A stretch of DNA of 64,000 bases from Octopus vulgaris. Its lineage: Eukaryota. Both the position numbers and the translations under genes were made by a program. Below the pieces are notes generated by a model that worked only from the letters and a program-made list of their open reading frames with translations, was not told the DNA's origin and did not search any database. The stretch spans positions 105,896,001 to 105,960,000 of the forward strand of contig OX597817.1 in the NCBI GenBank assembly GCA_951406725.2. Reading direction: 5' to 3'. This document shows positions 15,935 to 20,879 of this stretch, one piece after another. Position 1 is the stretch's first letter. The number at the start of each line of letters is the position of its first letter.

Positions 15935-16735
15935 AAAATTAGAAAATGGAGAAACATACTTAAATCAATAAAACATCAACTATCAGATGATACCCAATCA
16001 ATACTTTATTACACCATTACATATCAGTAAAGGCATTATACAAAATATAAAGTAAATATAAATAGACAAGGAAATAGAAATATAAAATATAAAATATAAT
16101 ATGTAATTATATCATATCTGACAGCTGTTTCGGCAGTAAGGGCAGTCATACCTATTTTAACCTATAAGCCATAAAGGCAGGTATAAATGAGGCATTAACA
16201 AGGATGCCACACGGCCTCTTCAGAGAATTTAATTTGTTATAATTGTTAAAAAAATTATTTTTCCATATACATATAAATATAAAAATATAAAAATGTAAAA
16301 TATAAAATATAAAAACTTGTGCATAAACTCCATAATGCTACACATATATAATACTCATTGATACAATAATGCAAGGTAAACAAAACAAAATAAAACAAAA
16401 TATATATCAGTGTATATATTAATATTAATAAGCACAGTTATTTTACATATTTAGCTAATAGTTCTAAAAACTAACACATAGGGAGATGTATGCGCACTAC
16501 TATTTAAATTAAAATCATCCCTATACCTGAAAATAATAATAATAAAAAAAACCATAGTTCAGTTCATAAAATTATAAGCCTATAAAAGTCAATATAAATT
16601 ACTATTAATATTAATAAAAATAATAATAGATACAGTTAAGTTAGCACCAAGTACATCCATTCAAAATCGAAATAACTATGAGTTTAGTTTTTCTGTCCGC
16701 TTGATATTGATTATTCTAGATTACTCCGATTGGCT
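15935..16735 (-). mobile_element. PLE-like terminal fragment with hammerhead B
   Basis: AT-rich block bounded by (TA)n on both sides, contains hammerhead motif. Confidence 0.55.
16117..16226 (-). ncRNA. Hammerhead ribozyme motif (family B) with long stem-II insertion
   Basis: Minus strand TCT-CTGAAGA-GGC...GCC-GAAA-CAGCTG-TC-AGA; GUC triplet; palindromic CAGCTG; stem I only 3 bp. Confidence 0.7.
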
Positions 16736-17023
16736 ATATATATATATATACACATATATATATACATATATATATATATATATATATATATATATATATA
16801 TACATACATACATATATATATATATATATATATATATATATATATATATATATATATATATATATATGTACCAATTAAGGACTGAACACGAAAAGTGGAC
16901 AGTCAACATGCTAGATATAGACGTCAAATCGCCATTCTCCACAAAAAGTCTATGTTCTCAGATCAAACTCAACACAAAACCAAAGCAATAAACAAGTGAA
17001 AAATATACGAAATAAATATTTAC

Positions 17024-17089
17024 CCATGTACTAAATTTAGTTTCGGCTGTTATTTTCCGCAAGGAAAAGTGCAGCCATCATCAGCATGG
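17024..17089 (-). ncRNA. Hammerhead ribozyme motif (family C)
   Basis: Reverse complement of 17428-17493. Confidence 0.8.
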
Positions 17090-17427
17090 TCCCATATAAA
17101 ATGTAATTTGCTGTACTAAATGCCAACACGATACCGAAATATCGCGTGCATGGAGTACGGCCTATTACATTTGAAATATATATTTCAAATGTCTTTATTT
17201 TGGCGCGATGAGACCCGAGAAAACTAGCCTGCAGCTAATAGTTAGCAGCAGTTAATTTATCGGTTAGAGAACAAATATTTATATAAAATTAAATTTAGGG
17301 TAAAAATTGATATTTATCAATTAGAACCAGTGGTCTAGCATATTAAAAGAACGAATCCGTACTCCATGCACGCGATATTTCGGTATCGTGTTGGCATTTA
17401 GTACAGCAAATTTCATTTTATATGGGA

Positions 17428-17493
17428 CCATGCTGATGATGGCTGCACTTTTCCTTGCGGAAAATAACAGCCGAAACTAAATTTAGTACATGG
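17428..17493 (+). ncRNA. Hammerhead ribozyme motif (family C)
   Basis: CCATG-CTGATGA-T-GGCTG...CAGCC-GAAA-CTAAATTTAG-TA-CATGG: 5-bp stem I, one extra U before stem II, 10-nt palindrome in stem III, GUA triplet. Confidence 0.82.
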
Positions 17494-17883
17494 GTAAATA
17501 TTTATTTCGTATATTTTTCACTTGTTTATTGCTTTGGTTTTGTGTTGAGTTTGATCTGAGAACATAGACTTTTTGTGGAGAATGGCGATTTGACGTCTAT
17601 ATCTAGCATGTTGACTGTCCACTTTTCGTGTTCAGTCCTTAATTGGTACATATAAATATTTTAATCTTCGGATTCTTTCTTTTAATATGCTAGACCACTG
17701 GTTCTAATTGATAAATATCAATTTTTACCCTAAATTTAATTTTATATATATATATATATATATATATATATATACAAAAATTCAGGGTGAATACTTGATA
17801 ATTGTAAGCACCTGTATATACCATTTAGTGGTGTAGGTGATAGAGTATATTAATCAAAATGAAAACATGATGCCAAGGATTCA

Positions 17884-17961
17884 GCGGTACATATGTTTCG
17901 GGCCTTTATTAGACGGTTTTATAACAATGCATAATGTGTGTCTATGGCCTTCTTCAGCCGC
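17884..17961 (-). ncRNA. Hammerhead ribozyme motif (family D)
   Basis: Reverse complement of 19287-19364. Confidence 0.78.
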
Positions 17962-19286
17962 GTACAATTACTACTTCAAGGACATGTATTACATTATAAG
18001 TTTTACGTTGGGGATGCAAATCTTCATAGTCGCGTACGACAGAGTGGGGCACCAACACAAAAACGAAGCGTCCATCCCGTCTTTCACTCGATGTAGTATG
18101 AGGAAGTTTGGATGTTGAGATAGAGAGGGAAGGGGTTGGGGAGGGTTGAATCTTTAGTGAGTTAGAGATCACAAAGAGGGAGGGTGGTGGGTGCAAATGG
18201 TAGTAAAAGTGTAAAAAATTACAAAAGAGTAAAAATTTTAAAAATATATAAAAAAGATATAAGAATATTAAAAATATATAAGAATATAAAAAAAAGATAT
18301 AAGAATATAAAGAAATATATAAGAATATAAAAAAAAAGTATCTAAGTATATAAATATATAAATCAATATATAAATATATAAATATCTAAATACACACAGA
18401 CGTGAAAAAAAACATGGTAATATAAATAAATAGGGATAAAGATAAAGCGAGAACTGAGGACGAAAGAAAAAAATAATAAGGATAAGGGATATAAAGGGGT
18501 TAAGAACTAACATGGTGGTCAGAAAGATGACATATTCCGGTTGTTGAAGCCTACGAGCGTAATGGCGGGTGTCATAAATCAACTAGAAAGTCTGGAGATC
18601 AAGTATATGGTCAATTTCGGTTGTCTGGTTTGTGGCTAAACAGTTTATCTACTTCCTCGTAAATTGTCTTTGTTACTAGTGGTCAACATGTACATACGTA
18701 CACGCATGCATACATATACACATATACACATACACATACCCACGTATACACATCCACACGTATATATACATACGTACTCTCGTGTAAAAATACCGACAGG
18801 GGTACGCATATACATACGTCCCGCTACGTACGGATACCTAAGCTTGCACCAGCTAAATACATAAAAGCAAATACAATAACCTGCCTCTGCATACGCACTC
18901 GTATACACACAAATACATACTCACGCATACATATGTAAAGCCCGCCCGTCTACCCACTTATATACGTATATGCGCACATACATAAATATCTCAATATACA
19001 CATACATACGGAAAAAGGTGCATGTAGTTGGGTACAAGAACTGACGCGCATACGTACGTATACACATACACGTACCTACGCACATACAGACACACTCACA
19101 CACATGAGAAAGTAAATCCCTATGCTTATGGACAAAGATATGCATACACCTACACTCACGCCCACACTCACACACATGGGGGAGTTTTTGTGTTGGTGCC
19201 CCACTCTGTCGTACGCGACTATGAGGATTTGATTCCCAAACGTAAAACTTATAATGTAATACATGTCCTTGAAGTAGTAATTGTAC

Positions 19287-19364
19287 GCGGCTGAAGAAGG
19301 CCATAGACACACATTATGCATTGTTATAAAACCGTCTAATAAAGGCCCGAAACATATGTACCGC
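19287..19364 (+). ncRNA. Hammerhead ribozyme motif (family D)
   Basis: GCGG-CTGAAGA-A-GGCC.TAGAC...GTCTA...GGCC-C-GAAA-CATATG-TA-CCGC; A.C mismatch at base of stem II; palindromic CATATG; GUA triplet. Confidence 0.8.
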
Positions 19365-19770
19365 TGAATCCTTGGCATCATGTTTTCATTTTGATATATA
19401 TACATATATATATATATACATACATACATATATATATATATATATATATATATATAATAATATATATATATATATATATATATATATATATATATATATA
19501 TATATATATATATATATATATATATATACATTAACAATTGAGGATAAAATCTTTAAAAGAAATTATCAGTAGTCAGTGTGAAAAACCTCGTAAGAGAAAA
19601 AATCCGTAAATTCTTCCTCTTTGAAAATATTCATTTATATTATATTGAGGGTACTACTATTCGTAGATACCATCACGCTAAGAGGGACCAATGCGGTCAA
19701 AACTACTAAAAATAAACAAAATTTTACCGAATGCAAAACTTCAAAACACATCATTTTAAAAAAGAATTCA

Positions 19771-19834
19771 GTTACATATCACATGTGATTTCGCATTTAA
19801 TGCAGAATATGCATTTCATGTTCATCAGTGCAAC
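19771..19834 (-). ncRNA. Hammerhead ribozyme motif (family E), tandem copy 1
   Basis: Minus strand GTTGCA-CTGATGA-ACAT.AATGCA...TGCATT.ATGC-GAAA-TCACATGTGA-TA-TGTAAC; 6-bp stem I with one G.U; 10-nt palindrome; AUA triplet. Confidence 0.8.
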
Positions 19835-20269
19835 AAACTCAAGAAATATAAGAGAAAAACATAACATTACAAGCTCGATAGCCAACCGTAGAATTCGTCG
19901 TAGCATGTACGAATGTTTATCTTTACATATCTATGAAAATGGCGGGCTTATTCGCAATGCATTTCGATAACAAATTGTCTAGTCGGAATAAAAATTCAGT
20001 ATTGAACTATTCCGGTGAAAAATATAAATTAACAATTGAGGATAAAATCTTTAAAAGAAATTATCAGTAGTCAGCGTGAAAAACCTCGTAAGAGAAAAAA
20101 TCCGTAAATTCTTCCTCTTTGAAAATATTCATTTATATTATATTGAGGGTACTACTATTCGTAGATACCATCACGCTAAGAGGGACCAATGCGGTCAAAA
20201 CTACTAAAAATAAACAAAATTTTACCGAATACAAAACTTCAATACACATCATTTTAAAAAAAGAATTCA

Positions 20270-20333
20270 GTTACATATCACATGTGATTTCGCATTTAAT
20301 GCAGAATATGCATTTCATGTTCATCAGTGCAAC
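20270..20333 (-). ncRNA. Hammerhead ribozyme motif (family E), tandem copy 2
   Basis: Same motif 499 nt from copy 1. Confidence 0.8.
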
Positions 20334-20879
20334 AAACTCAAGAAATATAAGAGAAAAACATAACATTACAAGCTCGATAGCCAACCGTAGAATTCGTCGT
20401 AGCATGTACGAGTGTTTATCTTTACATACCTATGAAAATGGCGGGCTTATTCGCAATGCATTTCGATAACAAATTGTCTAGTCGGAATAAAAATTCAGTA
20501 TTGAACTATTCCGGTGAAAAATATAAATTAACAATTGAGGATAAAATCTTTAAAAGAAATTATCAGTAGTCAGCGTGAAAAACCTCGTAAGAGAAAAAAT
20601 CCGTAAATACGACGAATTCTACGGTTGGCTATCGAGCTTGTGACGTCGATAATCGCCTGGGGCTAAATGCATCAGTAACACCCCCACCACCCTGCCCTGT
20701 CCCTAGCCACATTCAGATGGCTGATGCCCCTTATGTTATATATATATATATATATATATATATATATATATATATATATATATATATATATGTATGTATA
20801 CTCTATTCAAGTTATTACCTCCTTTGGCGTAAGTGTAACTCTCGAACAAAACAGACTGCAACGTAGGAACGCGTTGACA

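Follow-up and report, generated by a model that had tools for sequence, protein, structure and literature searches.

Seven hammerhead motifs in a TA microsatellite of Octopus vulgaris: a probable stack of Penelope-type insertions from five families

Penelope-like elements (PLEs) of the Hydra clade insert into (TA)n and carry hammerhead ribozymes, and an octopus representative, Hydra-1_Obim, is listed with a (TA)n preference in the account of the clade (PMC8557442), which also notes for PLEs that the tail is often present at one end only (Craig et al. 2021, PMC8557442). For Poseidon PAc, the reported in vitro work describes two internal start sites of the reverse transcriptase (RT) that define the tail, cutting of both strands and uncleaved RNA as the substrate (PMC11167929). 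According to the same report, top and bottom strands are the same in start site, and the PAc hammerhead requires protein (PMC11167929). PLE hammerheads are described as cleaving weakly (PMC4209133). Here, a window of 64,000 nucleotides from Octopus vulgaris (assembly GCA_951406725.2, contig OX597817.1, positions 105,896,001 to 105,960,000, forward strand) was analysed; positions below are those of the window, and L with a number designates a genomic locus used for comparison. The window contains an island with the order (TA)-A-(TA)-B-(TA)-C-(TA)-D/F-(TA), in which the letters denote repeat families (Table 1). This island very probably consists of five TA-flanked families that arrived by separate Hydra-type Penelope insertions into one TA microsatellite and what remained of it.

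A descriptor scan (CUGANGA / stem II / GAAA / helix III / UH / stem I) detected seven type-I hammerhead motifs in 4.7 kb, and all seven starts proposed in an earlier reading of the letters (the sequence-only reading) were recovered exactly. Dinucleotide shuffles of the island contained 0 motifs in 500, excluding a similar density in shuffled sequence, and the remaining 59 kb of the window contain two. The covariance-library search that the reading had suggested came back empty: Rfam gave no hammerhead match at gathering score nor at E<=5, and its matches are miRNA models driven by microsatellites. Because Rfam reports no hammerhead, support for the motifs comes from the descriptor, the shuffles and conservation. 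Helix III is self-complementary in all seven motifs, which represent four distinct ribozymes: a single copy in A, inverted pairs in B and C, and a tandem pair in D. Arms or units are identical at 292/293 (B), 206/210 (C) and 493/500 (D) positions. BLAST between blocks A-D found no match across families, in line with the reading, which had called the four blocks unrelated; their number was too low, since a fifth family, F, had been overlooked. The F hammerhead is absent from the island, as it is located upstream of the 100-nt F piece in the full unit.

A strict scan of 80 evenly spaced 10-kb samples yielded 13 motifs in 800 kb, with 0 in a reversed-sequence decoy, and extrapolation from these 13 gives ~45,000 motifs genome-wide. 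The descriptor scan is blind to decayed and U3-A8 motifs, and genome counts are underestimates because CUGANGA descriptors miss the U3-A8 hammerhead of family F. Among all loci compared, 38 distinct stem I/helix III types were found, 34 of them self-complementary with G-U allowed, indicating dozens of putative hammerhead-bearing families in the O. vulgaris genome. A sixth family, E, occupies window positions 1401-1760(-) and 4334-4616(+) and contains an inverted hammerhead pair at 1582(-) and 4465(+) with helix III ACAAUUGU; its body is long and repeated internally, and each of its outer ends has a TA tract. The family is also present in several random genomic samples.

Genome searches were performed per family, and the best 40 candidates of each were scored out of first-look totals of 2207 (A), 1340 (B), 2993 (C) and 2117 (D) candidate copies. 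Every block proved to be dispersed and high-copy, with near-identical copies; the dispersed copies of blocks A-D are 97-99% identical to those of the island. Other copies of A and C reach further 5' than the island blocks. Island A is 94% identical to the 3' untranslated region (UTR) in L105, where the family A sequence forms the end of a ~2.5-kb 3' UTR behind a 758-amino-acid (aa) frame with RT (YRDD) and a C-terminal endonuclease (EN), and in L258 the open reading frame (ORF) is continuous through to hammerhead A. A protein search with Hydra A returned 65 matches, out of 28,991 first-look candidates in the genome. Open frames of 955-960 aa are present in L184:901-3765(+) and L188:4380-1501(-), with a long Asn-rich insert between RT and EN, and the family A element is longer than 5 kb. 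Its C-terminal EN is of the GIY-YIG type by its motifs. The ORF contains DKT, the Hydra form of DKG (HSDKT in L184, L188 and L192), and the N-terminal RIRWRIF of L184 and L188 has RWR where the Hydra RWK is expected. The cysteine motifs are CxCx5C (CNCRNKNKC), CxxC (CSLC) and CxH (CIH).

The C sequence is found same-sense downstream of Hydra EN/RT in L113, L116, L119, L216-L218 and L231. The family C RT is 49% identical to that of A, in an ORF read without its N-terminal part, and the corresponding cysteine motifs are CNCICASEC or CNCISASEC (CxCx5C), CQLC and CIH. A CCHH motif was not seen by eye in the A or C proteins. Families A and C are identified by sequence as the 3' UTR/pseudo-long terminal repeat (pLTR) ends of two protein-coding Hydra-clade PLE families. 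The blocks had been described as non-coding, which agrees with the lack of a tblastn match between the Hydra protein and the window; for A and C, this description misses that they are the ends of coding Hydra elements. The proposal of TA-targeting, hammerhead-bearing Penelope-type retroelements is borne out by the high copy numbers, the (TA)n junctions and the linkage of A and C to PLE ORFs. A true nested insertion is found at L113:2647-2988, where an inverted F pair lies inside a family C 3' UTR.

B (512 nt) and D (499 nt) are head-to-tail units without coding capacity, and F is a 356-nt unit with tandem and inverted copies and one hammerhead per unit. Tandem arrays also exist outside the island, for B in L009 and L272 and for F in L246. 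The F hammerhead (L241, L246 and L254) combines a UUGAUAA core with a GC-rich helix II and a GUC site, and the U3-A8 core was present in 17/17 pattern matches. Family D with head-to-tail joins also occurs in contigs of three runs presumed to be RNA and one unlabelled run, a finding that gives no information on transcription, RNA ends, circular forms or the island itself. B, D and F are, by all appearances, retrozyme-like non-coding tandem families. They could instead be amplified pLTR ends of autonomous PLE families with unsampled ORF-bearing copies, as A and C also had the look of non-coding blocks in the window before they turned out to be PLE ends. In Xenopus, 24/57 retrozyme families are reported to match annotated transposable elements, and 21/22 matched elements are PLEs (10.64898/2026.07.22.740005); in addition, only the best 40 candidates per search were scored. 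Such an origin is nevertheless unlikely, given that B, D and F recur as units of fixed length in head-to-tail order, up to five B units in L272, and that no common non-unit sequence exists outside the arrays, in the diverged subfamilies likewise. Neither 15 extended B loci nor the diverged B-like and D-like subfamilies nor five protein baits revealed a linked autonomous partner for B, D or F, and no pLTR matching B, D or F was found.

The insertion ends follow one pattern in all five families. For families A, B, C, D and F, 156 distinct TA junctions were mapped, and 151 of them group in two clusters in each family, termed S (short) and L (long), which are ~40-180 nt apart, lie downstream of the hammerhead cut and adjoin (TA)n in each family. 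Of 34 two-armed B, C, D and F insertions, 31 were classifiable, and 30 of these pair an S with an L end (p=3e-8 vs 50:50); hand-picked two-armed A loci were S+L in 9/9 cases, two further loci of the 11 picked not being two-armed. The island conforms, with B running S...L, C running L...S, and D(L) joined directly to F(S). Because both S and L ends lie downstream of the hammerhead cut, the template must have included the ribozyme in uncut or re-ligated form. The S+L pattern fits the known one-ended Penelope tail and the two RT start sites, cutting of both strands and uncleaved template reported for Poseidon PAc (PMC11167929). The TA target and the end sites have a few A/T bases in common, which is indistinguishable from chance in AT-rich sequence. 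At the D/F junction, a 33-nt inverted D piece meets F with a 2-5 nt overlap and no TA tract, and no other direct cross-family join of this kind was present among the loci compared. This join may have originated by template switch, in a two-RNA event or by deletion; a microhomology deletion between two neighbouring insertions may explain it equally well. Neither the stacking of several families in TA tracts nor the S+L rule turned up in a literature search, the supplements of 10.64898/2026.07.22.740005 being outside the search.

Helix III forms no stable hairpin alone and is predicted to pair with a second copy at -7 to -16 kcal/mol, while cross-family pairing is -2.4 kcal/mol or weaker, except for C/D at -6.7 kcal/mol. 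The unconstrained minimum-energy fold of the D pair is predicted to be a double hammerhead. Helix III pairing has a probability of 0.98 in the D pair of the window and in 3/3 other D tandems, and of 0.44-0.86 in three B tandems. Since the dimer pairing of helix III is kept in 12/12 shuffles of the D spacer, it reflects the motifs and not the spacer. The inner stem I is formed with the native spacer (0.61) and in 1/12 shuffles, and the outer stem I is lost in one of three flank lengths. Whichever strand is read through, hammerheads B (66 nt) and C (78 nt) are predicted to be base-paired over their whole length within the long inverted repeats; hammerhead A has no same-strand partner, and its stem I has a predicted probability of 0. 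Only the D pair is thus predicted to fold as a cutting double hammerhead at the island. The expectation of the sequence-only reading that any crossing transcript would meet self-cleavage sites is not upheld by these predictions, whereas the long foldbacks that it described, the inverted repeats of B and C, are real.

The conservation of core and stems across copies varies between families. Hammerhead A is intact in 28/30 distinct copies, and its core plus stems I/III carry fewer changes than the flanks (3/750 vs 76/3559). The same holds for C (10/837 vs 272/3220); in B, conservation is weak, and D does not conform. The diverged B-like and D-like subfamilies show compensatory double-sided changes in stems I, II and III, in a scan that itself selects paired motifs.

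Table 1. Features of the hammerhead island, in window coordinates
Feature	Position	Strand	Remarks
(TA)15 tract	15906..15935	.	takes short (S) 3' end of A
Family A, last ~800 nt of ~2.5 kb Hydra-clade PLE 3' UTR, 5'-truncated, one-armed	15936..16734	-	
Hammerhead A	16117..16226	-	helix III palindrome ACAGCUGU; GUC site, C at 16120; 85-nt helix II region
(TA)n tract, ~66 units	16735..16867	.	
Family B left arm, 512-nt non-coding unit, S end against TA tract	16868..17359	-	
Hammerhead B copy 1	17024..17089	-	GUA site, A at 17029
Family B right (inverted) arm, L end against TA tract	17356..17742	+	
Hammerhead B copy 2	17428..17493	+	helix III ACUAAAUUUAGU; GUA site, A at 17488
(TA)16 tract	17743..17774	.	
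Family C left arm, last ~1.4 kb of second Hydra family's 3' UTR, L end	17775..19184	-	
Hammerhead C copy 1	17884..17961	-	helix III ACAUAUGU; GUA site, A at 17888
Family C right (inverted) arm, S end	19184..19393	+	
Hammerhead C copy 2	19287..19364	+	GUA site, A at 19360
(TA)n tract, ~68 units	19394..19528	.	
Family D, 2.2 head-to-tail copies of 499-nt non-coding unit, L end	19529..20608	-	
Hammerhead D copy 1	19771..19834	-	helix III AUCACAUGUGAU; AUA site, A at 19777
Hammerhead D copy 2	20270..20333	-	site at 20276; predicted cis partner of copy 1
Inverted internal D piece, 33 nt, joined straight to F without TA tract	20608..20641	+	
Family F, last 100 nt of 356-nt tandem unit, S end	20637..20736	+	
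(TA)n tract	20737..20800	.	

Beyond the island, window positions 20882-21981 contain several diverged copies of a common repeat resembling a short interspersed nuclear element (SINE), with a 184-nt period at 21613-21981, which we take to be an octopus SINE. Degenerate remnants of Penelope-type RT/GIY-YIG sequence from another clade are present at 49654-51151(-) and 35429-35827(+), the second with a weak Pfam GIY-YIG match; from their motifs, both are presumably Neptune-like.

The island would be explained by four or five separate retrotransposition events. In each, the RT-endonuclease would cut both strands of the TA tract, as suggested by the Poseidon in vitro work, and each DNA end would prime complementary DNA (cDNA) synthesis on element RNA that is uncleaved or re-ligated, with a separate internal start site for each end. 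The two cDNAs would then be joined 5'-to-5'. Each insertion would keep TA on both sides, thereby providing fresh targets for further insertions and allowing stacking with modest enrichment. B, D and F would be non-autonomous passengers of Hydra-type enzymes. The palindromic helix III would make the ribozymes dimer-dependent, so that tandem units, here D, would excise unit-length RNA able to circularise, and single or inverted copies, here A, B and C, are likely silent as ribozymes.

Several observations count against this origin by Hydra-type insertion. The Hydra A protein has no match among Pfam and PDB sequences, and A and C were assigned to the Hydra clade by motifs, with no RT tree. The linkage to PLE RT/GIY-YIG ORFs that holds for A and C fails for B, D and F: none of 98 loci, which represent few of the thousands of copies, has a linked ORF, and the five Hydra-like ORF fragments in these loci (some of them overlapping) include none that is contiguous, upstream and same-sense. 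A mobilisation of B, D and F by Hydra is suggested solely by the common end pattern and target. Strict S+L pairing is not directly explained, because the PAc strands share start-site use. On the ribozyme side, monomer folds are not unusually stable (z -2.65 to +0.16), ribozyme and flank changes indicate weak conservation in young B copies (22/1023 vs 133/3646) and no conservation in D (38/1680 vs 141/5721, inflated by free N7), and one of nine Xenopus retrozyme dimers is reported to be cleaved in vitro (10.64898/2026.07.22.740005).

A TA hotspot had been proposed for the stacking. When the island's own loci are left out, a hammerhead of another family is found across the TA tract within <=700 nt at 6/150 full-flank junctions, compared with 10/768 control tract sides (odds ratio 3.2, p=0.033) and 11/1120 random windows (p=0.010); the focal copies are the best-scoring ones, and the counts are small. 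At these rates, roughly 0.1-3 four-family chains are expected per genome. The stacking is real but modest (~3-fold), and the island is a rare extreme rather than a dedicated hotspot. A true local hotspot, in which chromatin, Z-DNA/cruciform-prone TA or an EN recognising earlier insertions draws insertions beyond target abundance, could be invoked for the motif density of the island, ~90x the sampled mean, for the neighbour rate of 4% vs 1.3%, and for the cross-TA neighbours of different family found elsewhere (B-C in L267, A-B in L276, B-D-like in L274 and A-F in L239). The Drosophila virilis EN is also described as recognising the element's own tail (PMC11167929). This explanation is improbable, however, as the enrichment amounts to six events, 144/150 junctions lack such a neighbour, and, by a rough estimate, the neighbour rate alone predicts a few four-family chains per genome.

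Within an origin by Hydra-type insertion, the helix III palindrome could act as a family-specific RNA dimerisation code for two-primer integration, comparable to a retroviral dimer-initiation site. Two RNAs of the same family would pair, and a dimeric Hydra RT-endonuclease would prime one per TA-tract strand, at S and L. If true, such a code would account for strict S+L, same-family, overlapping two-armed insertions and for retention of the hammerhead although copying needs no cleavage, and the D(L)-F(S) join at 20637 would represent a rare two-RNA integration by passengers sharing one enzyme. The idea is quite unlikely, weakened by the Naiads, which are described as making inverted copies without canonical hammerheads (PMC8557442), and by the possibility that the D/F join is a simple deletion. 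Co-option of the island by the host, as a ribozyme cluster that cleaves or terminates read-through transcripts, might be suggested by seven intact motifs on both strands and by long hairpins that might trigger double-stranded RNA pathways, but is hardly credible, since the blocks are as close to dispersed copies as recent insertions would be, B and C are predicted to be buried in duplex, and helix III sequences of different families pair poorly except C/D.

The island is ordinary transposon debris, and the kinds of its components are already known. Its value is that of a small test set for two questions: the way in which Penelope-type enzymes produce tandem and inverted insertions, and the role of the hammerhead. 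All five of its families show the same two-start-site pattern, and two-armed copies follow the S+L rule almost without exception. A possible source of enzyme exists in the Hydra A copies whose full-length frames are open, and for the D dimer a cutting fold is predicted.

Compared with the published description of the Hydra clade (PMC8557442), family A shares the single ORF with RT, C-terminal GIY-YIG-type EN and DKT, and both A and C share the CxCx5C linker and the CxxC/CxH around conserved E and N, with no CCHH. The type-I hammerhead near the 3' end, (TA)n targeting, 5' truncation, inverted copy and one-ended tail are likewise as described (PMC8557442). A and C are longer than the 'generally <3 kb' reported there, A having a ~950-aa ORF, the Asn-rich insert and a ~2.5 kb 3' UTR; A has RWR instead of the published RWK, and the A/C tails measure ~70-180 nt compared with 30-40 bp. 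Naiad PLEs differ in that they are described as having an N-terminal EN and no canonical hammerhead, whereas here the EN is C-terminal and the hammerheads are canonical.

B, D and F match metazoan non-LTR retrozymes, as these are described (PMC7229834, 10.64898/2026.07.22.740005), in anatomy: they are non-coding tandem units with one type-I hammerhead each and a helix III predicted to be dimer-dependent. Their units of 356-512 nt are at or above the 150-450 bp range given in PMC7229834, and they form short, dispersed two-armed arrays in (TA)n with PLE-type ends. The PLE hammerheads described by Cervera and de la Pena (2014, PMC4209133) share the palindromic helix III and, with F, the U3-A8 core; an extra nucleotide after A9 is reported there, and B, C and D have an extra or mismatched base at the foot of helix II. 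A further likeness is the spacing of pairs on opposite strands, 100-700 bp. B and D differ in their long helix III palindromes (12 nt), and A and C in their long helix II regions (85 and 51 nt). Poseidon PAc of Anolis (Frangieh et al. 2024, PMC11167929), as reported, resembles the families of the island in its two start sites, AT-rich target, cutting and extension of both strands and uncleaved template. It belongs to another clade, its start sites lie inside the ORF start, and its strands are alike in start site, whereas here opposite arms nearly always differ.

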